Assembly (NCBI RefSeq): GCF_030384885.1
Contig: NZ_CP128613.1
Strand: one strand, 5' to 3'
Origin: Escherichia coli
GTDB lineage: Bacteria; Pseudomonadota; Gammaproteobacteria; Enterobacterales; Enterobacteriaceae
Length of the DNA stretch: 64,000 bases
Part shown: in pieces, positions 19,004-45,260 of the stretch
Position numbering within the stretch: the first letter of the stretch is position 1
Layout: the number at the start of each line of letters is the position of its first letter
Position numbers and translations under genes: made by a program
The notes under the pieces: generated by a model
What the model was told of the DNA's origin: nothing
Databases searched by the model: none
What the model saw: the letters and a program-made list of their open reading frames with translations, nothing else

Positions 19004-20277
19004 TTAACTTCCCCTTGTGTCAACGCAATATCGCGATCATCGACCTTGATAGCCGTAATTTCGTTGTCGGATTCGCGGAAAAAAATCATGAACAGCACGG
19101 CGATAATGGCAATCATCACCGCGCCGAAAGTCCACATCCCGGACCAGTTGAAAGTCAGTCCGTTTACCGGTTCCGGATAAGCGAACATCTTTTCCATCAT
19201 CACACCGCCAAGACGATAGCCGAGCAAACTGCCGAATCCCTGGCAGCAGAGCGTGATCAGCCCCTGCGCAGCGGTACGCATATGCACGGGGGCTTTTTTA
19301 TCGACATAGATGTAAGCGGTAACGTAGTAAAAATCGTAACTTACTCCATGCAGCAAAATGCCGAGGAACAGTAACGCGTAGGTGAAATATTCATCCGCAC
19401 TACCGTAAATAAAGAAGCCATAGCGGATCGCAGCGGTGACCAGACCAAGTAATAATACCTTTTTGATACCAAAGCGTTTGGTAAAAAACGGCAATGCCAG
19501 CATAAAGAAGATTTCAGAGAACTGGCCGAGCGTCATCCAGCCGGTGGCATTTTTCATGCCGACTTCGGTCAGATAACCGTTGGCAAAGATGTAATAGAAC
19601 GCCAACGGCATCGCAAACAGGAATGAACAGAAGAAAAAGACGAGGAAGTTTTTATCGCGCAGCAGGATCAGCGCATCCAGTCCGAGCATGACTTTAATGT
19701 CCATTTTGCCGGTGCTTTTTGGCGGCGTGTCAGGCAGGAAAAACGCAAACACACCGAGCAGAGCAGAACTTCCGGCGGTAATCAGCAGCGGGATGTTAGT
19801 CGGAGAGATATCGGCATAACCCAGCATTTGCGGCAAGAATCCACATGCCAGACCGGAGGCAATCCAGCCGATAGTGCCCATCACACGAATGCGTGGGAAA
19901 TCACGCTCCACATCCGGCACGTTGGCAAAAGCGATACTGTTAGTCAGCGCAATGGTCGGCATATAGGTTAGCGAGTAGGCCAGCAGTAACGGGAAGAAGC
20001 CGGCAAAAGTGGTCTGTTGCGCAGCGAAATACATCAGCGCCGCACCAGCGAACATCAATACCGCCAGCACTTTCTGCGCCGAGAAAAAGCGGTCAGTGAT
20101 GGAGCCAACCAGAATTGGCGACAGGATCGCTGCAATGGCGGTACAGGCATACGACCAACCAATTTCTCCGGCACTAAAACCGCTTTTACTTAACCACAAC
20201 CACAATGGCACAAACCACGCGCCCCAGATAAACCATTCAACAAACATCATGAACGACAGCTTTGCTGTTGTTTTCAT
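19000..20277 (-). CDS. yegT: MFS nucleoside:H+ symporter-family transporter
   Basis: 425-aa polytopic membrane protein; first gene of yegTUV. Confidence 0.85.
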   Translation of the reverse strand: MKTTAKLSFMMFVEWFIWGAWFVPLWLWLSKSGFSAGEIGWSYACTAIAAILSPILVGSITDRFFSAQKVLAVLMFAGAALMYFAAQQTTFAGFFPLLLAYSLTYMPTIALTNSIAFANVPDVERDFPRIRVMGTIGWIASGLACGFLPQMLGYADISPTNIPLLITAGSSALLGVFAFFLPDTPPKSTGKMDIKVMLGLDALILLRDKNFLVFFFCSFLFAMPLAFYYIFANGYLTEVGMKNATGWMTLGQFSEIFFMLALPFFTKRFGIKKVLLLGLVTAAIRYGFFIYGSADEYFTYALLFLGILLHGVSYDFYYVTAYIYVDKKAPVHMRTAAQGLITLCCQGFGSLLGYRLGGVMMEKMFAYPEPVNGLTFNWSGMWTFGAVMIAIIAVLFMIFFRESDNEITAIKVDDRDIALTQGEVK

Positions 20278-20533
20278 CTTTTAATTCCTTCATGACAGGT
20301 AATGTAAGGTACGCGATGACAATACCATTTAATAATACCTTTTAAATACCTTTGTGGTGAAAAATTGACCGCGGTAACATTTTTTCTGATGAATCGAGCC
20401 AACAGAAAACGCTGAAAAAACATCCAAAAGATGGAAAAACTCGCCTGTAACGACCAGGATTATGATTGCCCGCAAAAGGCGGGCCAGGACAATCCATAGC
20501 CGATATCCAATCGGAATTTACGGGAGCATAGTA

Positions 20534-21586
20534 ATGACAGATATTGCGCAGTTGCTTGGCAAAGACGCCGACAACCTTTTACAGCACCGTTGTATGACTA
20601 TTCCTTCTGACCAGCTTTATCTCCCCGGACATGACTACGTAGACCGCGTGATGATTGACAATAATCGCCCGCCAGCGGTGTTACGTAATATGCAGACGTT
20701 GTACAACACTGGGCGTCTGGCTGGCACAGGATATCTTTCTATTCTGCCGGTTGACCAGGGCGTTGAGCACTCTGCCGGAGCTTCATTTGCCGCTAACCCG
20801 CTCTACTTTGACCCGAAAAACATTGTTGAACTGGCGATCGAAGCGGGCTGTAACTGTGTGGCGTCAACCTACGGCGTGCTGGCATCGGTATCGCGGCGTT
20901 ACGCGCATCGCATTCCATTCCTCGTCAAACTTAATCACAACGAGACGCTAAGTTACCCGAATACCTACGATCAAACGCTGTATGCCAGCGTGGAGCAGGC
21001 GTTCAACATGGGCGCGGTGGCGGTTGGGGCGACTATCTATTTTGGCTCGGAAGAGTCACGTCGCCAGATTGAAGAAATTTCTGCGGCCTTTGAACGCGCG
21101 CATGAGCTGGGCATGGTGACCGTGCTGTGGGCCTATTTGCGTAACTCCGCCTTTAAGAAAGATGGCGTTGATTACCATGTTTCCGCCGACCTGACAGGTC
21201 AGGCGAACCATCTGGCGGCAACCATAGGTGCAGATATCGTCAAACAAAAAATGGCGGAAAATAACGGCGGTTATAAAGCGATTAATTACGGTTATACCGA
21301 CGATCGCGTGTACAGCAAGTTGACCAGCGAAAACCCGATTGATCTGGTGCGTTATCAGTTAGCTAACTGCTATATGGGCCGGGCAGGGTTGATAAACTCC
21401 GGCGGTGCTGCAGGCGGTGAAACTGACCTCAGCGATGCAGTGCGTACTGCGGTCATCAACAAACGCGCTGGCGGAATGGGGCTGATTCTTGGACGTAAGG
21501 CGTTCAAGAAATCGATGGCTGACGGCGTGAAACTGATTAACGCCGTGCAGGACGTTTATCTCGATAGCAAAATTACTATCGCCTGA
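20534..21586 (+). CDS. fbaB: class I fructose-bisphosphate aldolase
   Basis: Track ORF 20462..21586; start moved to [16 protein letters not shown], giving 350 aa. Confidence 0.9.
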
Positions 21587-21613
21587 TACGCCTCATACGA
21601 ACAGCACTACCCC

Positions 21614-21647
21614 GTAGGGCGGATAAGGCGTTCGCGCCGCATCTGAC
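21614..21647. repeat. REP (repetitive extragenic palindrome) element
   Basis: gtagggcggataaggcgttcgcgccgcatctgac, typical REP consensus. Confidence 0.6.
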
Positions 21648-21670
21648 ATAAAACAACGTGCACTTTGTTA

Positions 21671-21698
21671 CGGCTTCCCCCGGGAGGCCGTTTTTATT
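21671..21698 (+). terminator. rho-independent terminator after fbaB
   Basis: GC-rich hairpin cggcttccc / gggaggccg followed by TTTTT. Confidence 0.65.
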
Positions 21699-21801
21699 GC
21701 CTGTCATTCTGGATTGATTTTCATATTGTCTTTTTTGTGATCGATATCGCGACATTTGGAAACAAAAAATTTCATTATATTTTGAAATCGAAAATAAATA
21801 A

Positions 21802-23959
<2,158 letters not shown>

Positions 23960-23968
23960 GGACGGTAT

Positions 23969-24418
23969 ATGACTAACCTGTTTGTTCGTAGCGGAATTTC
24001 TTTTGTCGATCGTAGCGAAGTTTTAACCCATATCGGTAATGAGATGATCGCGAAAGGTGTGGTTCATGAAACCTGGCCACAGGCATTAATTGCCAGAGAA
24101 GCAGAATTCCCCACCGGGATAATGCTTGAACAGCACGCCATTGCAATACCGCATTGTGAGGCGATTCATGCTAAGTCGTCAGCCATTTATCTGTTAAGAC
24201 CGGCGAATAAAATAAAGTTTCAGCAAGCTGATGATGATAACGACGTGGCGGTGTCGTTGATTATCGCGCTGATTGTCGAAAATCCGCAGCAGCAACTGAA
24301 GCTTTTGCGGTGCTTATTTGGCAAGTTGCAGCAACCAGATATCGTTGAAACGCTAATCACCATTTCTGAATCGCAATTAAAGGAATATTTCACACAGCAT
24401 ATTTTAGATTCCGAATAA
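23969..24418 (+). CDS. gatA: galactitol PTS enzyme IIA
   Basis: 149 aa; operon position. Confidence 0.9.
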   Translation: MTNLFVRSGISFVDRSEVLTHIGNEMIAKGVVHETWPQALIAREAEFPTGIMLEQHAIAIPHCEAIHAKSSAIYLLRPANKIKFQQADDDNDVAVSLIIALIVENPQQQLKLLRCLFGKLQQPDIVETLITISESQLKEYFTQHILDSE

Positions 24419-24452
24419 CCAAAAACCTCTGTACCAATAAAAAGGATTGATT

Positions 24453-24737
24453 ATGAAACGCAAGATTATTGTCGCTTGCGGAGGCGCGGTTGCGACCTCT
24501 ACGATGGCGGCGGAAGAAATTAAAGAGTTGTGCCATAGCCATAATATCCCCGTTGAAGTAATCCAGTGTCGGGTTAATGAAATAGAAACCTATATGGATG
24601 GTGTACATCTTATTTGTACTACCGCCAGAGTTGACCGCAGTTTTGGCGATATTCCGTTAGTTCACGGCATGCCTTTTGTTTCTGGTGTCGGTATCGAAGC
24701 ATTACAAAATAAAATTCTGACTATCTTACAGGGGTGA
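24453..24737 (+). CDS. gatB: galactitol PTS enzyme IIB
   Basis: Track ORF 24447..24737; start at [16 protein letters not shown] (94 aa), with the Cys of the CGG motif. Confidence 0.9.
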
Positions 24738-24740
24738 CCT

Positions 24741-26096
24741 ATGTTTTCAGAAGTCATGCGTTATATTCTCGACCTCGGCCCTACGGTCATGTTGCCGATT
24801 GTCATCATTATTTTTTCTAAGATATTAGGCATGAAGGCAGGCGATTGCTTTAAAGCGGGTCTGCATATCGGGATTGGCTTTGTTGGCATCGGCCTGGTGA
24901 TTGGCTTAATGCTGGATTCCATTGGCCCGGCGGCGAAAGCGATGGCGGAAAATTTCGACCTGAATCTGCATGTGGTCGATGTCGGCTGGCCGGGCTCTTC
25001 ACCAATGACCTGGGCGTCGCAAATTGCGCTGGTGGCGATTCCGATTGCGATTCTGGTTAACGTGGCGATGCTACTGACCCGTATGACGCGGGTGGTAAAT
25101 GTTGATATATGGAATATCTGGCATATGACCTTCACCGGCGCATTGCTGCATCTGGCAACCGGTTCATGGATGATAGGGATGGCGGGTGTGGTAATTCACG
25201 CGGCGTTTGTTTATAAGCTCGGCGACTGGTTTGCCCGCGATACCCGAAATTTCTTTGAGCTGGAAGGCATTGCTATTCCGCACGGTACGTCGGCGTATCT
25301 GGGGCCAATTGCGGTGCTGGTGGATGCTATCATCGAGAAAATCCCAGGCGTTAACCGTATTAAATTTAGCGCCGACGATATTCAGCGCAAATTTGGCCCA
25401 TTTGGCGAACCTGTCACTGTGGGCTTTGTTATGGGGCTGATTATCGGCATCCTCGCGGGTTACGATGTCAAAGGTGTATTGCAGCTGGCGGTAAAAACGG
25501 CGGCAGTTATGCTGCTGATGCCACGGGTGATTAAACCCATCATGGATGGTTTAACGCCCATCGCTAAGCAGGCCCGTAGTCGTTTACAGGCGAAGTTCGG
25601 CGGTCAGGAGTTCCTGATTGGCCTTGATCCGGCGTTGCTGCTGGGGCATACGGCGGTGGTATCGGCAAGCCTGATTTTTATCCCGCTCACCATTTTAATT
25701 GCTGTTTGTGTTCCGGGTAATCAGGTACTGCCGTTTGGCGACCTTGCCACCATCGGCTTCTTTGTTGCGATGGCAGTTGCCGTGCATCGTGGAAATCTGT
25801 TCCGCACCTTAATCTCGGGTGTCATCATTATGAGCATCACCCTGTGGATCGCGACGCAAACTATTGGTTTGCACACCCAACTGGCGGCTAATGCTGGGGC
25901 GTTAAAAGCCGGGGGCATGGTGGCTTCAATGGATCAGGGCGGTTCTCCCATTACCTGGTTACTGATTCAGGTTTTCTCCCCGCAAAATATTCCCGGTTTC
26001 ATTATTATCGGTGCCATTTATCTTACCGGTATTTTCATGACCTGGCGTAGAGCGCGCGGCTTTATTAAACAAGAGAAAGCCGTTCTCGCAGAATAA
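24741..26096 (+). CDS. gatC: galactitol PTS enzyme IIC
   Basis: 451-aa polytopic membrane protein. Confidence 0.92.
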   Translation: MFSEVMRYILDLGPTVMLPIVIIIFSKILGMKAGDCFKAGLHIGIGFVGIGLVIGLMLDSIGPAAKAMAENFDLNLHVVDVGWPGSSPMTWASQIALVAIPIAILVNVAMLLTRMTRVVNVDIWNIWHMTFTGALLHLATGSWMIGMAGVVIHAAFVYKLGDWFARDTRNFFELEGIAIPHGTSAYLGPIAVLVDAIIEKIPGVNRIKFSADDIQRKFGPFGEPVTVGFVMGLIIGILAGYDVKGVLQLAVKTAAVMLLMPRVIKPIMDGLTPIAKQARSRLQAKFGGQEFLIGLDPALLLGHTAVVSASLIFIPLTILIAVCVPGNQVLPFGDLATIGFFVAMAVAVHRGNLFRTLISGVIIMSITLWIATQTIGLHTQLAANAGALKAGGMVASMDQGGSPITWLLIQVFSPQNIPGFIIIGAIYLTGIFMTWRRARGFIKQEKAVLAE

Positions 26097-26143
26097 TTTT
26101 TACCTGAGGGGGAGTTTATCCCCCTTAATAATCAGGAGTTTTT

Positions 26144-27184
26144 ATGAAATCAGTGGTGAATGATACTGATGGTATCGTACGCGTTGCCCAACGAGTCATT
26201 CCTGAAATTAAACATCAGGATGAGGTGCGGGTAAAAATTGCCAGCTCGGGATTATGTGGTTCCGATTTACCCAGAATTTTTAAAAATGGTGCACATTATT
26301 ATCCAATAACGTTAGGCCATGAATTTAGCGGCTATATTGATGCTGTGGGATCCGGTGTTGATGATTTACATCCTGGCGATGCGGTTGCCTGTGTGCCGTT
26401 ATTACCCTGTTTTACTTGTCCAGAGTGTCTGAAAGGGTTTTATTCCCAGTGCGCAAAATATGATTTTATTGGCTCACGGCGTGATGGTGGGTTTGCCGAA
26501 TATATTGTCGTTAAGCGGAAAAATGTCTTTGCTCTACCTGCGCATATGCCTATTGAGGATGGGGCTTTTATTGAACCGATTACCGTTGGCCTGCATGCTT
26601 TCCATTTAGCGCAAGGTTGTGAGAATAAAAACGTTATTATTATTGGTGCCGGAACCATTGGCCTGCTGGCCATTCAGTGCGCTGTCGCGCTGGGAGCAAA
26701 GAGTGTGACGGCTATCGACATTAGCTCAGAAAAACTGGCACTGGCAAAATCTTTCGGTGCGATGCAAACATTTAACAGCCTTGAAATGAGCGCGCCGCAA
26801 ATGCAGCCCGTTTTACGCGAGCTGCGCTTTAATCAGCTTATCCTCGAGACGGCTGGCGTCCCGCAAACCGTCGAACTGGCGGTAGAGATTGCCGGGCCTC
26901 ATGCCCAGCTGGCGCTGGTGGGCACGTTGCATCAGGATCTGCATTTAACATCGACAACGTTTGGCAAAATATTACGTAAAGAGCTGACGGTTATCGGCAG
27001 TTGGATGAACTACTCCAGCCCTTGGCCGGGGCAGGAGTGGGAAACGGCGAGCCGGTTGCTGACAGAACGTAAGTTAAGCCTGGAGCCATTAATCGCTCAC
27101 CGTGGAAGCTTTGAAAGCTTCGCCCAGGCGGTGCGTGACATCGCTCGTAATGCTATGCCGGGCAAAGTGTTGCTTATTCCCTGA
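26144..27184 (+). CDS. gatD: galactitol-1-phosphate 5-dehydrogenase (Zn-dependent MDR family)
   Basis: 346 aa; GHEFSG zinc-ligand motif and GAGTIG Rossmann motif. Confidence 0.92.
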   Translation: MKSVVNDTDGIVRVAQRVIPEIKHQDEVRVKIASSGLCGSDLPRIFKNGAHYYPITLGHEFSGYIDAVGSGVDDLHPGDAVACVPLLPCFTCPECLKGFYSQCAKYDFIGSRRDGGFAEYIVVKRKNVFALPAHMPIEDGAFIEPITVGLHAFHLAQGCENKNVIIIGAGTIGLLAIQCAVALGAKSVTAIDISSEKLALAKSFGAMQTFNSLEMSAPQMQPVLRELRFNQLILETAGVPQTVELAVEIAGPHAQLALVGTLHQDLHLTSTTFGKILRKELTVIGSWMNYSSPWPGQEWETASRLLTERKLSLEPLIAHRGSFESFAQAVRDIARNAMPGKVLLIP

Positions 27185-27289
27185 AACCGCGGGCCAGCGT
27201 GATGCTGGCCCGGTATTGTGCAAAACAGATCATTCACCAATGGTCCCCCTTCGTTTACACTAGCCACAATTGAATATGGGTAAATGACG

Positions 27290-28063
27290 ATGAATTCATT
27301 CGAGCGAAGGAATAAGATCATCCAATTAGTGAATGAACAGGGAACCGTGCTTGTTCAGGATCTGGCGGGAGTATTTGCTGCCTCGGAAGCGACAATCCGT
27401 GCCGATTTGCGCTTTCTCGAACAAAAAGGCGTGGTTACGCGCTTTCATGGCGGTGCGGCGAAAATAATGTCCGGTAATAGTGAAACCGAGACCCAGGAAG
27501 TCGGGTTTAAAGAGCGATTTCAGCTCGCCAGCGCACCGAAAAACAGAATAGCGCAGGCGGCAGTCAAAATGATCCACGAAGGGATGACCGTTATTCTCGA
27601 CAGCGGAAGTACGACAATGCTTATCGCCGAAGGTTTAATGACCGCCAAAAATATCACGGTGATTACCAACAGTCTCCCGGCGGCGTTTGCCCTTTCCGAA
27701 AATAAAGACATTACTCTGGTCGTCTGTGGTGGCACGGTCCGCCATAAAACGCGCTCGATGCATGGCTCCATTGCCGAGCGTTCATTGCAGGATATTAATG
27801 CCGATTTAATGTTTGTCGGTGCTGATGGTATTGATGCGGTTAATGGTATTACGACCTTTAATGAAGGTTATTCGATTAGCGGTGCGATGGTCACAGCCGC
27901 TAATAAAGTGATTGCCGTTCTCGATTCATCGAAATTTAACCGTCGCGGTTTTAATCAGGTACTACCAATCGAAAAAATTGACATTATTATTACCGATGAT
28001 GCCGTGTCAGAGGTGGATAAACTGGCATTGCAGAAGACACGGGTGAAATTAATTACGGTGTAG
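27290..28063 (+). CDS. gatR: DeoR-family repressor of the gat operon; intact in this window
   Basis: Track ORF 27284..28063; start at MNSFERRNKIIQLVNEQG. One uninterrupted ORF with no IS sequence inside. Confidence 0.85.
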   Translation: MNSFERRNKIIQLVNEQGTVLVQDLAGVFAASEATIRADLRFLEQKGVVTRFHGGAAKIMSGNSETETQEVGFKERFQLASAPKNRIAQAAVKMIHEGMTVILDSGSTTMLIAEGLMTAKNITVITNSLPAAFALSENKDITLVVCGGTVRHKTRSMHGSIAERSLQDINADLMFVGADGIDAVNGITTFNEGYSISGAMVTAANKVIAVLDSSKFNRRGFNQVLPIEKIDIIITDDAVSEVDKLALQKTRVKLITV

Positions 28064-28144
28064 CATTGTTCTTTATGCCGGATAAGGTGTGTACACCGAA
28101 TCCGGCATCACTGATACTCCCTGAATTAAGAAAGAGAAATTTGA

Positions 28145-29044
28145 TTAACGCAATAATGGACAATCCGGTGGTAATCGACAGCGCAATGCTGCCGGAAGTA
28201 TTTCAATATGAAAGTTTTGTCCACTCAACGGTTCGCCATCAAGATTAAAGGTAATTTCGTGTGGCGCTTGTATATCGAACCACGCCGAAGCACCTTCGAT
28301 AATATTCGGGTTATCTTCGTCAGATTTTAAGGTTGATACGAGAGCCGGAAGAATTTCATCGCCGGTGAAAATGCGCAGTTGCAGTAAGCCGTCGTTAATT
28401 AATGCGTTCGGGCACAATTGCTGACCGCCACCTGCCTGACGGCCGTTACCAATACCAATGACTAGTGCGTCACCTTGCCAGTGAAAGTTTTCACCGCGGA
28501 TTTCACAACGGTCCGGTTGCAGTGTATCCATGCGCATTAAGCCGTGAATGATGTAAGAGACGCCACCCAGCGCTGCTTTTAATTTTTCCGGCGTTTCTGT
28601 GGTAATACGTGTCCCAAACCCACCCGTTGCCATATTAATAAAACAGGTTTGTTTGTTGACCTGCGCCATATCAATCGCAATAGCGTCACCAGCAATTGCT
28701 TGTTTCAGCGCCTTATCCAGTGCCTCAGGAATCCCTACACTGGTGGCAAAATCATTGGCGGTTCCTAATGGCAAAATTCCCAGCGCGGGTATGTCATCCC
28801 CCTCACACTGAATCAACGCCGTAGAAACTTCATTAATGGTGCCATCGCCACCACCGGCAATCACCGTTGCGACGCCCAACTTCCGGGCCTCTTCTACAAA
28901 TCGGGCGGCATCGCCTTTCTCCCAGGTGACCCGCACATGGATCGTCATTCCTTCCTCGCGCAACAGCATAATTGCTTCGCGCAAGGGTTGATTGTCAGTA
29001 CTTTTGCCGTTAAGAATCAGTAAGCTGGCGGGAAATTCTGCCAT
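28145..29044 (-). CDS. yegS: lipid kinase YegS (DAGK_cat family)
   Basis: 299 aa; GGDGT motif ([13 protein letters not shown]). Confidence 0.88.
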
Positions 29045-29457
29045 AATCGTATGCCTTTATGATTGGTCTGTAGATAGTGTAGAGCAGAAAAGAAAAGGTG
29101 GAGTCAGAACAGGATGAAAATCGGAGGATAAAAAGTCAGTTCAAGTATGGGGGATTCAGTGGTTACCACCAGGAGCTTGCAATGGGGACAGTGAATGTTA
29201 ACGGTAGCCACCGATAAATTTCAAAAAAGAACATATACCTAATATTCAACTAAACAGTGGCATCTTCAATATCTTATTCTAAATATATTAAAGCCCTCAT
29301 GGGGGTACCTGGGAAGGGCCTTCATGTTTGTAATTCCTACTTATGTAGGAAATGTTGTACAGAACATTTATTATAATCCTATTCAATTATAATAATCATG
29401 CCATTATTATATTTAAACACCATAGCGTGTCGTTGGTATTTAATGGGGGAAGGTGAG

Positions 29458-29775
29458 ATGAAAAAGACAGCTGCTATATCATTAATTAGTGTTTTTCTTA
29501 TGTCTGGTTGTGCTGTGCATAATGATGAGACAAGTATCGGTAAATTCGGTCTTGCCTATAAAAGTAATATCCAGCGTAAACTCGATAACCAATACTACAC
29601 TGAAGCCGAAGCATCTTTAGCCAGGGGAAGAATATCTGGTGCGGAAAATATAGTGAAAAATGATGCAGCTAATTTCTGTGTTACTCAGGGCAAAAAAATG
29701 CAGATAGTTAACCTGAAGACTGAAGGGGCAGGATTACATGGCGTCGCGCGTCTGACATTCAAATGTGGAGAGTGA
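29458..29775 (+). CDS. yegR: small lipoprotein-like protein YegR
   Basis: Track ORF 29398..29775; start at MKKTAAISLISVFLMSGCAV (lipobox-like). Confidence 0.7.
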   Translation: MKKTAAISLISVFLMSGCAVHNDETSIGKFGLAYKSNIQRKLDNQYYTEAEASLARGRISGAENIVKNDAANFCVTQGKKMQIVNLKTEGAGLHGVARLTFKCGE

Positions 29776-29945
29776 GAATATTTTTTTGTAAGCGTCAAAC
29801 ATGCGCGTTCTGGTTGTGCGTAGCCGGAGCCTGTACGAGCACGATGCCGTTAAGTGAAAGGCATCGTGCTATGAAGGGGGATTCTATCGATGTGGTCAAT
29901 GGAAGACGGTCACCTGGGATCAATCCGTCTCTATGGTTTATGCAT

Positions 29946-30032
29946 AAAAAATAAGCCCGTGTAAGGGAGATTACACAGGCTAAGGAGGTGGTTCCTGGTA
30001 CAGCTAGCATTTTATGGGTTATGTTTTTCAGC
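29946..30032 (-). ncRNA. cyaR: CyaR (RyeE) Hfq-dependent sRNA
   Basis: Reverse complement reads GCTGAAAAACATAACCCATAAAATGCTAGCTGTACCAGGAACCACCTCCTTAGCCTGTGTAATCTCCCTTACACGGGCTTATTTTTT, which matches the 87-nt CyaR sequence as I recall it, including the terminator hairpin and U-tail. Confidence 0.9.
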
Positions 30033-30116
30033 GAAACGGATGATAACCTTAATAAATGCAGCTGTATGTGATCGGTTTCTAAGAATTTTCCATCCGGGAA
30101 AAATAATCGAAATTAA

Positions 30117-31478
30117 TCACTTACCGTGGGGGTTACGCGTGGTTTCCCCGGAGAAATTACGCATCAGCAGCGCGTAATTTAGCTCAAGATCCTGCGGGAC
30201 CGGGATCCACACAGTATAACCATCGCCCGGTGCGACCGGCATTGCTTCGCCTTTGGCGTTTTCCATATGCTCAAGGGTAAAGTTAATGTTCCCTTGCGGC
30301 GTCATCAGCTCAAGGCTGTCGCCAACGGAGAATTTATTTTTCACCGCTACCGCCGCGAGGTCGCCCTTGCGCTCACCGGTAAACTCACCAACAAACTGCT
30401 GGCGGTCAGAAACTGAATAACCGTATTCGTAGTTCTGATAATCGTCGTGAGTATGACGACGCAGGAAACCTTCGGTATAGCCACGATGCGCCAGACCTTC
30501 CAGAGTTTCCAGCAGGCTGGTATCGAATGGTTTTCCCGCAGCTGCGTCATCGATAGCTTTACGGTAAACCTGCGCGGTGCGTGCGCAATAGTAGAAAGAT
30601 TTTGTACGACCTTCGATTTTCAGCGAATGCACGCCCATTTTGGTCAGGCGTTCTACGTGGGCAATGGCGCGCAAATCTTTTGAGTTCATGATGTAAGTGC
30701 CGTGCTCATCTTCAAACGCGGTCATATACTCGCCCGGACGCTGGGCTTCTTCGATCATAAACACTTTGTCGGTTGGCGCGCCGATACCCAGCGTCGGCTC
30801 AACATTTTGCACCGGAATTGGCTCGTACTTGTGTACGATGTTGCCAACGTCATCTTCTTTACCTTCCTGGACGTTGTACTCCCAGCGGCAGGCGTTGGTG
30901 CAGGTGCCCTGGTTCGGATCGCGCTTGTTGATATAACCAGAGAGCAGGCAGCGACCAGAGTAGGCCATGCACAGCGCGCCGTGAACGAAGATTTCGAGTT
31001 CCATATCCGGCACCTGATTGCGGATCTCTTCAATCTCTTCCAGCGACAGTTCGCGAGAGAGGATCACGCGGGTCAGGCCCATTTGCTGCCAGAATTTCAC
31101 CGTCGCCCAGTTCACTGCGTTAGCCTGTACCGAGAGATGGATCGGCATTTCAGGGAAGTGCTCACGCACCAGCATAATCAGCCCTGGATCGGACATAATC
31201 AGCGCATCCGGCCCCATTTCCACCACCGGTTTCAGGTCACGGATAAAGGTTTTCAACTTAGCGTTGTGCGGTGCAATGTTGACCACGACATAAAACTTTT
31301 TCCCCAGCGCGTGGGCTTCATTAATGCCGAGCTGAAGATTTTCGTGGTTGAATTCGTTGTTGCGCACACGCAGGGAGTAACGCGGCTGGCCCGCATAAAC
31401 AGCATCTGCGCCATAAGCGAAAGCGTAACGCATATTTTTCAGCGTTCCCGCCGGGGAAAGGAGTTCCGGTTTAAACAT
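30117..31478 (-). CDS. yegQ: peptidase U32-family protein
   Basis: 453 aa; conserved position next to cyaR. Confidence 0.88.
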   Translation of the reverse strand: MFKPELLSPAGTLKNMRYAFAYGADAVYAGQPRYSLRVRNNEFNHENLQLGINEAHALGKKFYVVVNIAPHNAKLKTFIRDLKPVVEMGPDALIMSDPGLIMLVREHFPEMPIHLSVQANAVNWATVKFWQQMGLTRVILSRELSLEEIEEIRNQVPDMELEIFVHGALCMAYSGRCLLSGYINKRDPNQGTCTNACRWEYNVQEGKEDDVGNIVHKYEPIPVQNVEPTLGIGAPTDKVFMIEEAQRPGEYMTAFEDEHGTYIMNSKDLRAIAHVERLTKMGVHSLKIEGRTKSFYYCARTAQVYRKAIDDAAAGKPFDTSLLETLEGLAHRGYTEGFLRRHTHDDYQNYEYGYSVSDRQQFVGEFTGERKGDLAAVAVKNKFSVGDSLELMTPQGNINFTLEHMENAKGEAMPVAPGDGYTVWIPVPQDLELNYALLMRNFSGETTRNPHGK

Positions 31479-31681
31479 AATTCTCTCGTTCTGATGACAG
31501 GTCAGATCCGCTTCACCTGATGAAGCGGTTGGGGGAGTGCCCCCACTTTAAGGGCGGGCATTGTAGCGCAATCGGTGGGGTTGACTCCAGTGACAATGTT
31601 AAGGGAAAGACTGCGCATTTATTTCGTTTTGACTCCGATAGTCGTCAGGTTCAATTGTTATCAGTTGACCTTAATTTGGTG

Positions 31682-33082
31682 TTAAAGAAAGGGAATATAA
31701 CCCCATAACTTGTTGTGAAGTTCCGGATTGCAGGTAAAAAGCGCCTGAAGTTGCTGACGCTGAGGAGCATTTGGTTGAATGCCCGAAAGATTGAAATTGC
31801 GTTGCCATATCGCGAGCTGTTTACCTGCAAATTCTTCAGTTAGCTTGTGTTGCGATTGCAGAAGAAGAATTAAACAGGCCCATTTGTTCAAGTTATGATA
31901 CAGCCGACAATATGCGCAAGCATGTTTAACTGACGGTGCGTTTTCCAGCAACTTACGTATTTCCTCGAACGTAAGCGGAACTCGACACCATACACAGATG
32001 TTAACCATAAATCGAAGCCCGGAGGCGTCCGGGTTAGCCAGTGTGGTCAGAATAATCCCTTTGACACCACCATCAGGATTGGCTTTCGCAAGAATATACA
32101 TAGCGGCTAATCGCATTGGGAATACATCCTGTGATAATCCCCATTCTGCCAGTTTTAAAATATTGGCATCATGAATGGAGTCCAGCCCGTATAAAGCTGC
32201 CCGGCGCTGTGAGGGAGTATATTCAGTCGAGGTGACAACATGACGCCAGAATTGCACAACATCCATGACGTCATTAAGCATGTTTTTAGCGCGTAGACGG
32301 ATCAACATATTGTTATCCAGCAGTAATGCGCTGTACAACGCCGGAGGAATTTCTATAGCTCGGTCAGTAAGGCTAAACAACGTTGCTTGTCGAATACGCG
32401 GCCAGCGGTCTTTTAACAGACGAGTTAATACCGCTTCGCTTAACGGTAATTGTTGACGCAGCCAGTGGGTGACCGCCAGCATTCGTAAACCTTCGTCGGG
32501 CTGCTTGAGTATTAAAAGCAGCGAAGATTCATCATTAAAGTAGCCATATTCAATCAGCGTTTGTAATACTGCGCGGGAGAGTTTTTTATCAGGGCAAGTA
32601 AGCCAACACGTTAATTGTGGACGGCTATTTTCTGTCAATAAAAATCTAAGTATCTCGTCTACAAATGCACGGTGATCGTAACGCTGGCATTGGAGAAGGT
32701 TACGTATCAAGGGAAGATTAACGGCAAATGCCGCTGCATTCTTATCCTTCTTTAAATGACGTAACGCTATGGTTGCAGCAAGGCGAACCTCTTTTACCCA
32801 GTCATTAGCTGCAAGTAATAATTCTTCTATAGCTGCAACATCCTCTTTTTGTCCCAGACATTGCACGGCCTTTTCTCGTATATATCCATTGTGGTGATGG
32901 GTAAGCTGGCAAAGAACCAGAGTATCGTTGAGATCACAATCATGCGCTATATAATTGCCTGGATCGGCTATCATCGACTGGAGTTGTTGCTGGATAAGAA
33001 ATAATTCACAGTCAACAGAATTATTCATTTCGACGTTAAACAAAACCCTGCGTGTAAATAATGTACGCAATCCTTTGAGCAT
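31682..33082 (-). CDS. hypothetical alpha-helical repeat (HEAT/ARM-like) protein, 466 aa; not a gene I recognise at this locus
   Basis: Complete ORF in a visibly AT-richer stretch than its neighbours; recurring hydrophobic/Ala-rich helical repeats (WVKEVRLAATIALRHL, LRMLAVTHWLRQ, PMRLAAMYILAKA); no signal peptide or TM segment evident. Confidence 0.6.
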   Translation of the reverse strand: MLKGLRTLFTRRVLFNVEMNNSVDCELFLIQQQLQSMIADPGNYIAHDCDLNDTLVLCQLTHHHNGYIREKAVQCLGQKEDVAAIEELLLAANDWVKEVRLAATIALRHLKKDKNAAAFAVNLPLIRNLLQCQRYDHRAFVDEILRFLLTENSRPQLTCWLTCPDKKLSRAVLQTLIEYGYFNDESSLLLILKQPDEGLRMLAVTHWLRQQLPLSEAVLTRLLKDRWPRIRQATLFSLTDRAIEIPPALYSALLLDNNMLIRLRAKNMLNDVMDVVQFWRHVVTSTEYTPSQRRAALYGLDSIHDANILKLAEWGLSQDVFPMRLAAMYILAKANPDGGVKGIILTTLANPDASGLRFMVNICVWCRVPLTFEEIRKLLENAPSVKHACAYCRLYHNLNKWACLILLLQSQHKLTEEFAGKQLAIWQRNFNLSGIQPNAPQRQQLQALFTCNPELHNKLWGYIPFL

Positions 33083-33204
33083 AATTTTCCTTATCAGTTA
33101 TGAGGAGAAAACTCATTTCATGATTAATAATTTCCTGAGGGATAGTAACTCTGTGATGAGAGAAAATAAAGCCGGACGCCAACAACCTACGCCCGGCATC
33201 GTAA

Positions 33205-33537
33205 TTACGTATTGTCTTTCACCGTCTGGCTTGTGCCATTGGCTTTAACGGAGGCAATTCCGGTTTCACGAGATTGCGCGGTGGCGTACATCTGGCTGGA
33301 GCCGATAATTTGATGATTGGCGGCTTTCAGATTGAAATAGAATTTGCCGTTGCTTGCTGTTTTTTTCTCATAGCGTTCTTCTTGTGGGCTGTTGCTACGC
33401 ACTGACGCGATGCCCTTTTCCGCAGAGGCTTTTGAGGTATACAGCTCGCTGGTGAGGATAGTCTCACCATTGCCCGCTTTTAGCACAAACCGGAATTGAT
33501 TATCACTGCTCCTACTGAGTTCAAACCAACCAGCCAT
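33205..33537 (-). CDS. yegP: YegP (UPF0339/DUF1508 tandem-repeat protein)
   Basis: Track ORF 33205..33576; start moved to MAGWFELSRSSDNQFRF (110 aa); internal duplication visible (FRFVLKAGNGE / FYFNLKAANHQ). Confidence 0.85.
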   Translation of the reverse strand: MAGWFELSRSSDNQFRFVLKAGNGETILTSELYTSKASAEKGIASVRSNSPQEERYEKKTASNGKFYFNLKAANHQIIGSSQMYATAQSRETGIASVKANGTSQTVKDNT

Positions 33538-33716
33538 AATGACTCCTTGATTGAAATTGCGTATCGAAAACAGCATCTAAAAGGACTGTTTGCCGATTAA
33601 AGTATGAGCGATTTTCAGGTGCTTGCCAGGGCGGAGAGATAATGTCAGATAGCCGACAATGCGCGGGATAATGCTGCCGGATGTGGCGTGAATGCCTTCT
33701 CCGGCAGGTAAAAATG

Positions 33717-34439
33717 TTAAACGATGCGGCAGGCGTCGGCTTCCCAGCGATAACCGACACCGTAGACGGCGCGGATAAAAGACTGCTCTTCGTCCAGAGC
33801 TTCCAGCTTGCGACGCAGGTTTTTAATGTGGCTGTCGATGGTGCGGTCAGTTACTACGCGGTAGTCGTCATAAAGATGATTGAGCAATTGCTCGCGGGAG
33901 AACACTTTTCCTGGTTCATGAGAGAGTGTTTTCAGCAGACGAAATTCCGCAGGCGTCAGGTCAAGCATTTTACCGCGCCATGAAGCCTGAAAACGACCTT
34001 CGTCGATAATCAACGGGCTTTCAGCATCCTGTTGCTGCAACTCACGCTGCGGTTTGCAACGGCGCAAAATGGTTTTGACGCGTGCTACCACTTCCCGTGG
34101 GCTGTACGGCTTGCAGATATAATCATCTGCGCCAATCTCCAGCCCGAGCAGGCGGTCGATCTCTTCGATTTTTGCTGTCACCATCACGATCGGAATGTCA
34201 GAAAAACGACGAATCTCCCGACACAACGTCAGGCCATCGGTGCCGGGGAGCATCAGATCCAACAGGATCAGATCCGGTGGTGTCTGGCGCACATATGGCA
34301 GTACCTGATCGCCGTGGCTGATAAGCGTCGGCGCATAGCTCGCAGCACGCAGATAATCAATAAGCAACTGCCCCAGCTTCGGTTCATCTTCCACGATCAA
34401 AATACGTGGCGTGTTTTCGTCGATTGGTAACTCGGTCAT
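33717..34439 (-). CDS. baeR: OmpR-family response regulator BaeR
   Basis: 240 aa; receiver domain plus winged-helix; overlaps baeS by 4 nt. Confidence 0.93.
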
Positions 34440-35839
34440 ACTTCTCTCTGTAAATCCCGTTCCAGCGGTAACTCTACTGTAATGCTTACCCCGCCAAAAG
34501 GCGAATGAGCGGCAACAATGCGACCATTATGTGCTTCAACAATGTTAAGACAAATCGCCAGCCCCAGGCCGGAACCGCCGCTGGCACGGTTGCGGGAACC
34601 TTCGGTGCGATAAAAACGCTCAAACAATTTTTGCAGTTGATCGTCACTAACGCCCGGTGCACTGTCGGCAAAGGTCAGGCGCACCGTTTTGTCATGTTGC
34701 TCGGCAGAGATATGCAGGCTGCCGCCGCTGTCGGTATAGCGCAGGCTGTTTTCCAGTAAGTTATTGAACAACTGCATTAAACGATCGCGATCGCCAAATA
34801 CGGTAATGCTGTCTGGCAGGGAAAATTTCAGTTTCAGCCCGCGGCTGGCGAAACGCTCACGAAATGCGCCACCCGCGACTTCCAGTAGCGGGATCAGATC
34901 CACCGACGATTTCTGGTAGGCGAGAGCGCCTTCATCAGACATCGACAATTGATGAAGATCATCCACCAGTTTGGTCAGTGTACCGACCTCTGCCTGTAAA
35001 GAAGCCACCGTCTCCGGCGTGAATTTACGCACGCCATCCTGAATAGCTTCCAGTTCGCCGCGCAGTACCGCTAAAGGCGTGCGCAGCTCGTGGGAGATAT
35101 CGGCCATAAAATCGCGGCGCATCTGTTGGTTTTTCTCCAGCGTGCTGGCGAGCTGGTTGAAGTCTTGCGCCAGTTTGCCCAATTCATCTTCACTGGTGGG
35201 CGTCACGCGAGTAGTGAAATCGCCCGCTGCCAGTTTGTGTGTACCGTCCACCAGTCGTTTGACCGGAGCCAGCAAACCGCGCGCCAGTGGGAATGTCGCC
35301 AGCGCCGCTAACAAGGTAGATAAAGCGACAATCAGCCAACTGGTTTGCCTCTGTTGTCTGTCAAAATTGATGTCGGTATTGCGGGTCAGTCGTTCAACAG
35401 GGGAGGCGATCACCGCACCCACTTCCGCCCCATTGACCATAATGGGCCGCCGTGTGCCGTCTGGTGGAATCGGTGCTCGCGGGCCAACCAGCACTTTGTT
35501 GTTTTGATCAACCACCCAGAATTGCGTGCGCCAACCGTGTGGCGGCATACCGGGGCCGGGCTTATCTTCGTTGTTATCATGCTCCAGCGAACGTAGGATC
35601 TGAAATACAAAGCGATCGTTATTACGCAGGAAGCGCCAGTTCCCGTGCTGGGCGTACTGCTCACCAAGCGCATCGCCGAGCATTTGCAGCCGTTGTTCAT
35701 TTCCATGCTTGATGTAATCGATAAAGCCGCGCTCAAAACTGATACGTACCGCCCAGTGCATCGTGATCAATAAGACAATGCAGGTGGCGAAAATCGCCAG
35801 AAACAGTTTGCCGGTAATACCGGGTCGCCAGAATTTCAT
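34436..35839 (-). CDS. baeS: sensor histidine kinase BaeS
   Basis: 467 aa; H-box HELRTP and HATPase motifs. Confidence 0.93.
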
Positions 35840-37251
35840 TGCGCGCTCCTTTTTCGCCGCGAAATAGCGACATTTTGATGCGTATCGTTCGGCACTCTGG
35901 CAAAGATAAACGCCGGAAGGGCGATGATAAACGCCATGCTAAGCCAGGTGTACATAAAGACGGTTTGTGTGGTGCTGCTGTCTACACTGACATGCTGTGA
36001 ACCAAAAAGCCCCAGCAACAGCCCGGCGATGGTGACGCCGATACTCATCGATAATTGCATAATCATCGACAGCAGGCTGTTGCCGCTGCTCGCCAGATTG
36101 TCTGGTAGATCTTTCAGCGTCAGGGTGTTCATGGAGGAGAAACGTGTCGAGTTGACCATTCCTTGTAAAAACAGGACGAACGGCAAAACGTAGTACCAGC
36201 CCAGCAGCGCGGTAGTCATAAACAGCAGGGTGACCAGCGACAGGCCCAGCGTGGTCGCCACCAGTACCCGACGATAACCAAAGCGATTCACTACCTGCAC
36301 TACAACTCGCTTCATTCCCATGCTGCCGAGCACCATCGGGATCATCATCAATCCGGCATGAAACGGCGAGAAACCGAGGCCAATCTGTAAGAAAACCGGT
36401 GTCATAAAGGGCAACATGCCACTGCCGATACGTCCGGCAAAGCTCCCCGCCAGGCCCAGCGAAAAGGTACGAGTGCGGAACAGTTTCAGACTGAACAGGG
36501 CGCGGTTGTTATTTCTGGCGTGCAGCAGATAAAGCACCAGTGCCACCACGCCAATCGCTGCCAGTCCGGCAATCGCCAGCGGCGATAAACCTGTACCTTT
36601 ACTGCCATCCAGCGCCAGCGTTAATACCGCCATGCCGACTGCCAGCAATAAAAAACCGGAGAGATCGAAACGCCGCGTCTGCATGGTGTAGTTTGGCATT
36701 AACATCAGCGTGGCGATCGCACCGATAATCCCTACCGGAATGTTGATCAAAAAGATCCAGTGCCAGGACGCGTATTCCACCAGCAGGCCGCCGAGCGCCG
36801 GACCAAGCAGCGGACCGACTTGCCCGGGCAGCGTAACAAAGGTCATCGCCGCCATATATTGCTCGCGCGGTACAATTTTCATCACCGTCAACCTGCCAAC
36901 CGGCACCATCATCGCGCCGCCAACGCCCTGTAACGCGCGTGCCAGCAACAGTTCGTTTAGCGTGCCGGAAAGCGCGCAAAACAGTGAACCGAGAGTAAAC
37001 AGTACGATGGCGGTAAAGAAAATATTGCGCACGCCGACTTTGTCCGCCAGCCAGCCGCTGGCGGGCAGCATCACCGCCACGGTCAGTACATAAGAGACAA
37101 TGACCATGTGCATATGCAACGGACTTTCCCCAAGGCTTTGCGCCATTGAGGGAAGGGCGGTGTTTACGATGGTGGTGTCCAGCGACTGCATAAAGAAGCC
37201 GAAAGCCACAATCCACAATTGCCAGCGGGTGCTGTCGGGAAGATCTGTCAT
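35836..37251 (-). CDS. mdtD: MFS transporter MdtD
   Basis: 471-aa polytopic membrane protein; operon position. Confidence 0.92.
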
Positions 37252-40200
37252 TTACTCAGTTACCGTTTGTTTAGGTTTACGCGAAAAACGCAGCCGCAGA
37301 CGGTCAAAAAAGAGATACACCACCGGCGTGGTATACAGCGTCAGGAGCTGGCTCATTACCAGACCGCCGACAATGGTGATCCCCAGGGGTTGGCGCAGCT
37401 CCGAGCCGTCACCGCCCGACAATACCAGCGGCAGCGCACCAAACAGCGCCGCCAGGGTAGTCATCATAATCGGGCGAAAACGCAGCAGACAGGCCTGGAA
37501 AATAGCTTCCTGCGGCGTCAGGTTACCGTGCCGTTGGGCTTCGAGCGCAAAATCGACCATCATAATGGCGTTTTTCTTCACGATGCCGATTAATAGCATG
37601 ATCCCTATCAGGGCGATTAGGCTGAACGGGGCATTGAACAGCTCCAGCGCCAACAGCGCTCCAACGCCCGCCGAGGGCAGGGTGGAGAGAATCGTCAGTG
37701 GATGCACGTAACTCTCGTAAAGGATACCCAGCACGATATACACCGTGGCGATGGCTGCGATAATCAGGATCACCTGCGAGTTCATCGTCTCCTGGAATAC
37801 CTGCGCTGTTCCGGCAAAACTGCCGCGCACCGTCGAAGGCACACCTAGCTGGGTCATTGCGCGGTCAATCGCCGCACTGGCGTCCGAGAGCGATTTTCCG
37901 GTCGGCAAGTTGAACGAGATGGTCGAGGCCGCCGATAATCCCTGATGATTCACCGACAGCGGGGCATTCGCCGGTTGCCATTTAGCGAAATATGACAGAG
38001 GGATCGCTTTTCCTTCGTTATTAATGACAAACATTTTTTCCAGTGCACTGATGTCCTGGGTATAGCGCGGATCCACTTCCATCACCACTTTATACTGGTT
38101 CATGGGCTGGTAAATGGTCGAGATTTGCCGCTGACCGAAGGCGTTATTCAACAGGCTGTTGGCGGCCTGCACGTCGATTCCCAGCCGTGCCATGGTATCG
38201 CGGTCGTAAACCAGATTCATCTCCGCGCCGTTATCCTGCTGGTCGGAATTCACGTCCGCCAGTTCCGGCAATGTCGCCAGTTTTTTGCGGATTTTCGGCT
38301 CCCATTCGCGCAGCGCCGCCAGGTCGTCGGAGAGCAACGTATACTGGTAACTGGCGTTCGACTGACGTCCGCCAACGCGAATATCCTGTACCGCCATCAG
38401 GAACAGATTCGCCCCCGGTTCTTTCGCCAGCTTCACCCGCAGACGGTCGATAATTTGCTGCGCCGTTTCGCTGCGCTCGTCGCGCGGTTTGAGAGTGATA
38501 AACATCATCCCACTGTTCACCCGCGAGCCACCGGTAAAGCCGGTGACATTATCCACTGCCGGATCGTCACGGATAATTTTCATAAAATCCTGCAACTTAC
38601 CACGCATCGCCTGAAACGAAATACTCTGATCCGCCTGTATCCCGCCCATCAACACGCCGGTGTCCTGCTCCGGGAAGAAGGTTTTCGGGATCGAGATATA
38701 CAGCCAGATATTCAAAGCAATGGTGCCAAGCAGCACCACGCCCACCAGACGGGTATGATTAAGCACCCATTTCAGTGACTTGCCGTAGCTTTGTTGCAGG
38801 GCTACCAACATGCGACCAAAACCACGCAGACGCTTTTGCTCGCGCGGCTTGCTGGCTTTTAGCATCCAGCCGCACATCATCGGCGTTAACGTCAGGGAAA
38901 CCAGCAACGAAATACCAATGGCGACAGAAAGCGTCACGGCAAATTCGCGTAACAGTCGGCCCGGCAATCCGCCCATCAACAGCAGCGGCAGGAACACCGC
39001 CACCAGTGACAGACTCATCGACAGTACCGTAAAGCCGACTTCGCGAGTACCTTGCAGCGCGGCCTGTAGCGGTTTCATCCCCGCTTCCAGATGACGGGCA
39101 ATGTTTTCCAGCACTACGATGGCGTCATCCACCACGAAACCAGTAGCGATGGTGAGCGCCATTAACGAAAGATTATTGAGACTGAAACCGCACAGGTACA
39201 TCGCCGCAAACGTACCAATCAGCGAAACCGGCACCGCAACGGCGGGAATAATTGTGGCGCGACCCGAGCGCAGGAATAAAAAGACCACCAGAATCACCAG
39301 TGCCACCGAGATAATCAGCGTTTGCTCGACTTCTTCCAGCGAGGCGCAAATGGTGGGGGAGCGATCCTGGGCAATTTGCAGATCAATCGCCGCCGGAATG
39401 GTCTCCTGCAACTCCGGTAATTTTGCCCGGATGCTGTCAACCGTCTGGATAATATTGGCTTCCGGCAGCTTGCGGATCATCAGCAAAATAGCCGGTTTGG
39501 CGTTGGTCATCCCGGCGTTGCGCACATCCTGCACTGAGTCGGTCACCGTCGCTACATCGCCCAGACGAACCGCGCCGCCGTTGTTGTAATGAATAATCAG
39601 CGGCTGATATTCAGCGGCGGTTTTCAGTTCATCGTTAGTCTGGATCTGCCAGCGGTGAGTGCCATCTTCCAGCGCCCCCTGCGGTTTACGCACGTTGGCA
39701 TTGCTGATGGCAGTGCGTACGTCGTCCAGCGACACGCCCTGATTAAATAGCGCCTGCGGGTTCAGCCCAACGCGCACAGCGGGCAACGAGCTGCCGCCGA
39801 CATCGACATCACCGACACCGTCGATTTGCGAAATTGTCGGAGCCAGTTGCGTCGAGGCGAAATCGTACAGTTCACCCTGCGAATAAGTATCGGATGTCAG
39901 CGTCAGGATCATAATTGGCGCATCCGAAGGATTCGCTTTGCGATAGGTCGGACGGCTTGGCATTCCGCTGGGCAGCAAACTTTGCGCGGCGTTGATCGCC
40001 GCCTGCACATCGCGCGCCGCGCCGTTGATATCCCGGTCAAAATCAAACTGCAAAATAATACGCGTGCTGCCAAGCGAACTGCTGGAGGTCATTTCACTGA
40101 CCCCGGCGATGCGCCCAAGTGAGCGCTCCAGCGGCGTGGCGACGGAAGACGCCATTGTCTCCGGCGATGCACCGGGCAGCGAGGCGCTGACCATGATCAC

Positions 40201-40329
40201 CGGAAAATCGACCTGCGGCAGCGGGGCGACCGGCAGCATACGGAAGCCCAGTATGCCGCACAGGGTAATGGCAACCGACAGTAAAATCGTCGCCACCGGG
40301 CGGTAAATGAAGAGGGCAAAAAACTTCAC
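37252..40329 (-). CDS. mdtC: RND multidrug efflux transporter subunit MdtC
   Basis: 1025 aa; AcrB-like. Confidence 0.95.
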
Positions 40330-43300: not shown

Positions 43301-43452
43301 TAGTCCACTTCCGGCAGCGCCGAAACGGGCAGGGCACGATAACCGATAATCCCGGCGAGTAAGATCGCCACCATCAGCAGCGTAGTGGCGACAGGACGCA
43401 TAATAAACAGGCGCGACGGGCCGCCTGTGCTGCTCGGGGGTAACACCTGCAT
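40330..43452 (-). CDS. mdtB: RND multidrug efflux transporter subunit MdtB
   Basis: 1040 aa; AcrB-like; directly abuts mdtC. Confidence 0.95.
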
Positions 43453-44699
43453 CAGGAGCGTGCTCCTTTTTTCGCGTATTCGCGGCTGGTGGCTTTCTCT
43501 TCCGAAGTGGTGGCGCTTTGAGCTTCAACCACTTCCACTTTCGCCCCTTCGGTCAGACGATCAATGCCATCCGTCACTACGCGGTCGCCTGCAGAAATAC
43601 CTGCGCGGATCACCACTTTCTGACTGTCCTGAATGCCCGGCGTCACCAGATGTTTGCTGACCTTGTTTTCGCTATTCAGCACCCAGACAAAATGGCCTTC
43701 GTTGCCCATTTGCAGGGCGGCGGTGGGGATCACCACGGCGTTTTGTTCGGTGTCGACTAACATGCGCGCGTTAACAAACTGATTGGGAAACAGCGCATCA
43801 TCCTGATTATTAAAGCGTGCTTTCACTTTAATCGTACCGGTAGTGGCATCGATTTGGTTATCGAGACTTAACAGCGTGCCTTCACTTAATTTCTTCGAGT
43901 TGGTGCGATCCCAGGCTTCAACAACCAGCGGTTTTCCGGCTTTTTGCGCCTGTACTACGGTAGCGATATCGCTTTCCGGCAGGGTAAAGAGCAAATCGAT
44001 AGGATGCGTCTGGGTGATCACCACAATCCCGGTGGTATCACCACTGGAGATTTGGTTACCAACATCAACCTGCTTGAGACCAACGCGACCATCGACTGGT
44101 GCGGTGATGCGGCTCCAGTCGAGTTGCAGCTGTGCGCTGGCGACGCTCGCTTCATCAGCCTTAATGGTACCTTCGGTTTCACTGACCAGCGCCTGTTGGG
44201 CATCCAATTCCTGACGGGAGACGAGATTGGTTTTTGCCAGTTGCTGATAACGCGCTAAATCACGGCGGGCGTTGGCTAGTGTGGCTTTATCTTTTGCCAG
44301 TTGCCCCTGAGCTTGTGCTAATGCAACTTTGAACTGGCTGGGGTCAATTTCTGCCAGTAAATCGCCTGCTTTGACCTGCTGACCCTCCTGGAAATGTAAT
44401 GCCATCAGTTGACCATCTACGCGACTGCGCACCGTAACGGTGTTAGCAGCGGTAATCGTACCAAGCCCGGTGAGGTAACGCGGAACCGCCTGTTCCACGG
44501 CAGTTGCTGCCTGAACCGGGGCCAATGGGCCGGAACGCATACCACGGCGGCCACCGGCTGGCGACTGCTGTGCTTGCTTCGTCGCACCTGGCGCTGCGCT
44601 CTGGGATTCATTGCGGCCTTGCCAGAACCAGAAAGCGGCGATGGCGGCGATAACCACCACGATTACGATTACCCAACGGGATTTATAACTGCCTTTCAT
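43452..44699 (-). CDS. mdtA: membrane fusion protein (periplasmic adaptor) MdtA
   Basis: Track ORF 43452..44846; start moved to [16 protein letters not shown] (415 aa). Confidence 0.9.
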
Positions 44700-44932: not shown

Positions 44933-45073
44933 GGGAAAGCCCCTCCCGAGGAAGGGGCCTTAAATAAGGAAAGGGTCATGATGAAGATACTCATCATCGT
45001 GGTGCTCTTAGTCGTTAGCTACCCAGCTTACTAAGACTACCAGGGCGGGGAAAACCCCGCTCTACCCTCACTC
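44933..45073 (-). ncRNA. sibA: Sib antisense antitoxin RNA, unit 1 (approximate ends)
   Basis: Ends placed by analogy to the K-12 sibA/ibsA geometry (sib fully overlaps ibs on the opposite strand); not mapped from sequence. Confidence 0.45.
44978..45034 (+). CDS. ibsA: type I toxin Ibs, 18-aa hydrophobic peptide (MMKILIIVVLLVVSYPAY)
   Basis: ATGATGAAG... ORF preceded by an AGGAAAGGG RBS; matches the Ibs family. Confidence 0.75.
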   Translation: MMKILIIVVLLVVSYPAY

Positions 45074-45260
45074 CTGAAAATATGCCTTCACGGTCAGAAT
45101 GTCAATCCGCAGGCTTTGCAGTCTGCGATCCTGCCAGCAAATATTCTTTGCGAGTCGTTACGCAATAATCACAGATGAAACTATTTTATCTACGCGTTAG
45201 CGATAGACTGCATTCAGGGCGAAAGGAGGTAAGCCGATGATTTCAGCGGGACGCTGAAAC

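Follow-up and report, generated by a model that had tools for sequence, protein, structure and literature searches.

An intact gatR and an unoccupied P2 attachment site beside cyaR in a non-K-12 Escherichia coli

In the reference strain Escherichia coli K-12 MG1655, the chromosome between the galactitol (gat) operon and yegQ carries two marks of mobile DNA: the RefSeq annotation gives the repressor gene gatR as a two-piece pseudogene around the insertion sequence (IS) IS3E, and between cyaR and yegR it places a ‘cryptic prophage PR-X’ that contains ogrK and a pseudogene, yegZ. Here we compare with K-12 the corresponding region of another E. coli chromosome, lying within a stretch of 64,000 nucleotides (the window; assembly GCF_030384885.1, contig NZ_CP128613.1). 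The gene broken by IS3E in MG1655 acts as a repressor in strains LF82 and CFT073 (bioRxiv 10.64898/2026.01.05.697630; PMC4072538), and when the MG1655 pseudogene was swapped for gatR of E. coli HS the operon became regulated, the original strain being constitutive (Sousa et al., PMC5850726). At the other site, the gene for the small RNA (sRNA) CyaR, also called ryeE, is mentioned in PMC3603311 as a gene that phages are known to target. The record of phage P2 itself annotates an integrase (Int) P-arm site, an integration host factor (IHF) site and a 27-bp attP core. The P2 site at the 3' end of cyaR/ryeE is presumably the one named locI, which Barreiro and Haggard-Ljungquist are said to have found in 1992 to be vacant in E. 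coli C and filled by a P2 remnant in K-12; our literature search for original descriptions of the P2 site and of the K-12 remnant returned indirect citations only.

The gene order in the window is gatYZABCD–gatR–yegS–yegR–cyaR–yegQ. With high confidence we regard gatD–gatR–yegS–yegR–cyaR–yegQ as the usual, uninterrupted layout of E. coli, from which K-12 is a derived exception at two independent points, i.e. the IS3E insertion in gatR and PR-X at cyaR. An intact gatR together with an empty P2 site is a correct description of this strain and an ordinary one. The annotation of the reference genome shows both peculiarities of K-12, and published work discusses them; what is found here was therefore known before. 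For the comparison, the window was aligned by BLAST to a 20-kb stretch of MG1655 and read against the RefSeq annotation NC_000913.3. The matching blocks are collinear with three breaks, at 27586–27588, at 29887–29920 and at 31570–33170, the last reflecting additional DNA in the window outside the gatR–cyaR finding. The initial annotation had proposed such an alignment as a check, and the K-12 arrangement does differ both at gatR and between yegR and cyaR. The first break concerns the following features:

27290–28063, plus strand: gatR, DeoR/GlpR-family repressor gene of the galactitol (gat) operon; 774 nt, 257 codons, WP_001295426.1
27586–27588: GAC triplet, the target site of IS3E in K-12, located as a BLAST breakpoint with a 3-bp overlap; single and uninterrupted here

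The open frame of gatR, directly after gatD, extends from 27284 to 28063, and the start of the coding sequence (CDS) is annotated at the ATG at 27290 in an identical RefSeq genome. The N-terminus of the product carries the DNA-binding domain HTH_DeoR (PF08220, residues 6–58, E 1.3e-16, 60.5 bits against a cut-off of 21) and the C-terminus the effector-binding DeoRC sensor domain (PF00455, residues 83–236, E 2.5e-51, 174 bits against a cut-off of 31.8). Among the NCBIfam equivalog models none reached its cut-off, the best being AgaR with 232.6 against 260, so that the assignment as GatR is based on orthology. Open frame, annotated CDS and domains thus agree on the single intact DeoR-family gene of 257 codons that had been proposed from the sequence, and the IS disruption of its K-12 counterpart is borne out by the split pseudogene in the MG1655 annotation.

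In K-12 the IS3E element measures 1,258 bp and has GTC at both of its ends, a 3-bp target-site duplication. Removing IS3E and one copy of the triplet from K-12 gatR restores a gene of 774 nt, which is identical to gatR of the window at 763 of the 774 positions; the 11 differences are all synonymous, and the two proteins agree in 257/257 amino acids (aa). In contrast to the split K-12 gene, the target GAC is kept here, there is no IS and the reading frame is continuous. The likeness to E. coli HS is complete at the protein level, with GatR in the same place after gatD, the same 257 aa and the same accession, WP_001295426.1. In the K-12 lineage, on this reading, IS3E transposed into gatR near codon 100 and duplicated the GAC triplet; the interrupted frame would yield a truncated product of 110 residues, and the literature describes gat expression as constitutive.

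Because GatR of this strain is the same protein as the HS allele that restored regulation in MG1655, repression is to be expected here as well. We strongly infer that the gat operon is repressible in this strain, gatYZABCD most likely being repressed by GatR until galactitol is present. In the source genome the annotation gives every one of the six gat structural genes as intact, whereas MG1655 has gatC as a pseudogene; with the identity of GatR to a functional allele and the conserved region upstream of gatY this upholds the suggestion of a repressible operon made by the initial annotation. An alternative would be that gatR is intact and the operon nevertheless escapes repression through altered operators or an altered inducer response, which we consider improbable. 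The gat region is 94.9% identical to that of K-12, and the spacer between fbaB and gatY differs from K-12 by several substitutions and by a REP (repetitive extragenic palindromic)-like block of 78 bp that is found in K-12 and missing from the window at about 21636–21637. That block, however, belongs near the end of fbaB, well upstream of gatY, whereas the approximately 110 bp leading up to the start of gatY, with their TTTCA...TGAAA repeats, have for the most part been kept as in K-12, the spacer between gatD and gatR is identical to K-12, and the repressor itself is unchanged from the functional allele.

The second difference from K-12 lies between yegR and cyaR, where these features are found:

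29458–29775, plus strand: yegR, annotated CDS; 105-aa product with a lipoprotein-type signal at its start (MKKTAAISLISVFLMSGC)
29776–29945: spacer between yegR and cyaR, 170 bp from the yegR stop (29775) to the CyaR 3' end (29946)
29887–29926: relic resembling the P2 Int ‘P arm’ binding site (TCGATGTGGTCAATG...), found by alignment to the annotated P2 site
29946–29972: P2 attachment (att) core, exact over 27 bp (AAAAAATAAGCCCGTGTAAGGGAGATT), an unoccupied attB overlapping the CyaR terminator
29946–30034, minus strand: cyaR (ryeE) sRNA gene, from Rfam RF00112 and transfer of the K-12 annotation

The distance from the yegR stop to the CyaR 3' end had been put at about 170 bp; it is 170 bp when measured to the annotated end and 173 bp when measured to the end of the Rfam match. 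In K-12 the same spacer is 788 bp long because it holds the PR-X remnant, made up of yegZ (a 3' fragment of P2 gene D), ogrK and the P arm. At the break at 29887–29920, K-12 contains about 580–620 bp more than the window, P2-derived and 96.7% identical to phage P2 over the 3' end of gene D, ogr and attP. A BLAST comparison of the K-12 PR-X block with the yegR–cyaR interval of the window gave no match. Annotation and BLAST therefore confirm that the ogrK/yegZ P2-like remnant is present in K-12 and absent here: the chromosomal site from yegR to cyaR is the same, and the P2 DNA (D'–ogr–P arm) is missing from it. K-12 has one exact att core adjoining cyaR and, on the yegR side, a truncated core, AAAAAAATAAGCCCGTGTA, fused to the gene D fragment. 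The simplest history for this arrangement is that a P2-like prophage integrated at the core and later lost the DNA between the interior of the left core copy and gene D, which left D'–ogrK–P arm–core, i.e. PR-X.

CyaR itself is well conserved. The Rfam RF00112 match covers 29949–30034 on the minus strand (100.7 bits against a gathering threshold of 47, model positions 1–85 of 85), and the 87-nt K-12 gene is identical here, with transferred coordinates running from 30032 to 29946. Its terminator, the sole terminator-like site in 27100–30200, consists of an 11-pair stem from 29981 to 29954 followed by a run of T, and folding gives the same hairpin. The 27-bp att core, at which P2-type integrases act, corresponds to the descending half of this stem plus the T tail; it occurs once in the window and matches the annotated attP core of P2 in 27 of 27 positions. 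According to open reading frames (ORFs) and annotation there are no phage genes beside the core, which lies between yegR and cyaR/yegQ. The P2 attachment site is unoccupied in this strain. It follows that cyaR abuts host DNA and that P2-like phages could, to judge by the intact core, integrate at 29946–29972. The window thus has in common with the P2 site at cyaR the exact 27-bp core overlapping the CyaR terminator and the lack of adjoining phage genes; it differs in that the host flank holds a degenerate copy of the P-arm Int site of P2. Occupied counterparts exist: in strain KK05-19 a P2-family prophage adjoins cyaR/trhP, and the P2-like prophage record ON470606.1 ends within the yegR–yegS–gatR flank.

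Two further sequences touch on the core. Contig DXKH01000116.1, from a metagenome-assembled genome labelled Citrobacter sp., is 95.9% identical to the window over 25808–29972, with similarity breaking off precisely where the core ends. It has the look of a contig of E. coli type that was binned with Citrobacter, and an element is probably integrated at cyaR. In EC958 the att core has a C-to-T change (AAAAAATAAGCCTGTG...).

The copy of the P-arm site beside the core matches P2 exactly over 15 bases (TCGATGTGGTCAATG), after which the similarity is degenerate; it lies 60 nt from the core, compared with 63 nt in P2. Its local alignment score is 33, as against 15.8 (standard deviation 2.2) for dinucleotide shuffles, none of which reached 33 in 1000 (z = 7.7). 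The same relic recurs in EC958 and, on the yegR side, in K-12. Being common to K-12, EC958 and the divergent lineage studied here, it predates all three and does not reflect a recent local event. When species-representative genomes were searched for this relic, the single match was an E. coli-like contig binned as Citrobacter. The spacer that appears ‘empty’ throughout the species is therefore itself, on this sequence evidence, probably the scar of a still older P2-like attR. A more elaborate version of this idea, to which we give an outside chance, would have the spacer as an ancient attR scar in which, at a phage-like distance from the core, a single Int arm-type repeat (TGTGGTCA) of the original two survives along with part of its surroundings, the arm site biasing P2-type integrases and so helping to make cyaR an integration hotspot. 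The arm-site relic is an only mildly new element, and its functional relevance is speculative.

How common the two states are was estimated in 5,426 complete E. coli genomes. When gatR was counted as contiguous if at least 80% of it matched in one place, 4,756 genomes had it in this form and 317 had no gatR match; the gatR::IS3E junction of K-12 was present in 344. A 601-bp spanning query placed the end of yegR and cyaR/yegQ at most 800 bp apart in 4,559 genomes, of which 358 carry the left junction specific to the K-12 PR-X remnant. In about 864 genomes (about 16%) the site was split into two places, and the examples that we inspected contain P2-family prophages. The 601-bp query and the remnant-specific junction query replaced a 140-bp query over the empty site, which was dropped because, with the P2 P arm so similar to the host flank, it could not tell empty sites from occupied ones. 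Among the genomes listed for the IS3E and PR-X junctions, most are named K-12 and laboratory strains. The counts are approximate, and the gatR figure is blind to point mutations; imprecise as they are, they leave the conclusion standing that most genomes are arranged like the window, with K-12 as the exception. The 4,756 contiguous gatR genes and 4,559 short intervals, set against 344 and 358 K-12 junctions, also support the view of the initial annotation that this region is in its native state, although at the att site ‘native’ holds only in a relative sense because the spacer bears the relic of an older P2-type arm site.

Several points weigh against the picture of an uninterrupted and regulated locus. 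The figure of 4,756 for gatR takes in some interrupted genes whose pieces were joined, as in BL21 with IS1. A comparison of the regions upstream of gatY and of gatR for candidate GatR operators found no common motif of 8 nt or longer, and both gat repression and the competence of the att site are deduced from sequence. Moreover, the spacer is no pristine attB: with its degenerate P2-type arm site, an older integration probably preceded the ‘empty’ state.

This last point could be extended to the claim that the layout has been restored rather than inherited, i.e. that in this lineage gatR lost an IS by precise excision and cyaR a neighbouring prophage by excision or deletion. Precise excision would be scarless at 27586–27588 and hence invisible to sequence, the arm relic indicates that a P2-like element was once resident beside cyaR, and about 16% of genomes are split at this site, in the examples inspected by prophages. 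The relic, however, is older than K-12, EC958 and the present lineage alike, the uninterrupted state is found in most genomes, and the genomes listed with the IS3E and PR-X junctions (344 and 358 of 5,426) are mostly named K-12 and laboratory strains. We thus judge a restored layout to be very unlikely and less probable still than the failure of repression considered above. For artefacts of assembly or annotation, such as a collapsed IS or prophage, no evidence was found, and they can be given next to no weight, since two independent complete genomes, 2013C-4282 and 2020CK-00188, are approximately 100% identical to the window over 27000–30400 and the same layout recurs in thousands of complete genomes, including E. 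coli HS.

K-12 is thus atypical in this region, with its constitutive gat expression and a P2 remnant beside cyaR, and what it suggests about galactitol use or the genomic context of CyaR calls for caution before being applied to wild strains. A regulated as opposed to a constitutive gat state has consequences for fitness in gut colonisation (PMC5850726; bioRxiv 10.64898/2026.01.05.697630), which makes an intact gatR the physiologically relevant state as well as the common one. Overall, the significance of the finding is small and mostly a matter of bookkeeping.

The initial annotation had also read both differences as signs of a non-K-12 lineage, and this was borne out. Positions 19098–38714 of the window are 93.6–97.1% identical to MG1655, and for a 27-kb core sample from a distant part of the source genome the identity to K-12 is 96.6%. 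Over 27000–30400, only 2 of the 5,426 complete genomes match at 99% or more, the next best reaching 96–97%, and for argH–eptC, a 9.4-kb part of the core sample, identity of at least 99% was found in only 15 genomes. The gatR::IS3E and PR-X junctions, which would mark membership of the K-12 lineage, are both absent from the window. Low identities and few close genomes indicate that the source belongs to a rare, deeply branching lineage of E. coli. The mdtA–baeS stretch (34000–44000) is just 90–95% identical to 5,177 of 5,422 genomes.

The remaining genes of the interval are the following:

28145–29044, minus strand: yegS, lipid kinase, from its ORF, DAGK_cat and YegS_C domains and annotation; convergent with gatR
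30117–31478, minus strand: yegQ/trhP, right-hand limit of the finding, from its ORF and annotation

YegR, encoded next to the spacer, is identical to K-12 YegR in 98 of 105 aa, and its homologues bear the Pfam family PF27694 (YegR), which is nearly restricted to Escherichia and Shigella. Homologues with 48–52% identity occur in an IS-flanked island in Enterobacter and in the mug–fdo region of another enterobacterium. The possibility that yegR was cargo of an old P2-like prophage was considered on account of a match to PHROG family 21109 and rejected as lacking support. A tblastn search with YegR against 50,697 phage records found only the K-12 fragment ‘Phage TP’ and ON470606.1, and the latter, a prophage record, includes the host flank yegR–yegS–gatR; the PHROG family containing YegR thus probably arises from prophage records that carry host flank. 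The unrelated, non-phage surroundings of the homologues with 48–52% identity also speak against phage cargo. In ST131/B2 strains such as EC958, about 170 bp of extra AT-rich DNA follows right after the yegR stop and not at the core; it occupies 433–600 of the compared EC958 stretch, i.e. the point just after position 29775 of the window.

Beyond yegQ, the 1.6-kb insert between yegQ and yegP (31570–33170), missing from K-12, contains an ORF of 466 aa with HEAT repeats at 31682–33082 on the minus strand. Searches with this ORF gave generic HEAT/alphaRep repeat matches only. Only 39 of the 5,426 complete genomes contain 80% or more of the insert, and other strains have a ParD-antitoxin gene or IS1 at this spot. 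Further along, 44963–45761 on the minus strand holds three tandem genes for Sib antitoxin RNAs (Rfam RF00113, 137–139 bits each). The number of ibs/sib copies varies at this locus, with two ibs genes annotated in HS and four in KK05-19.

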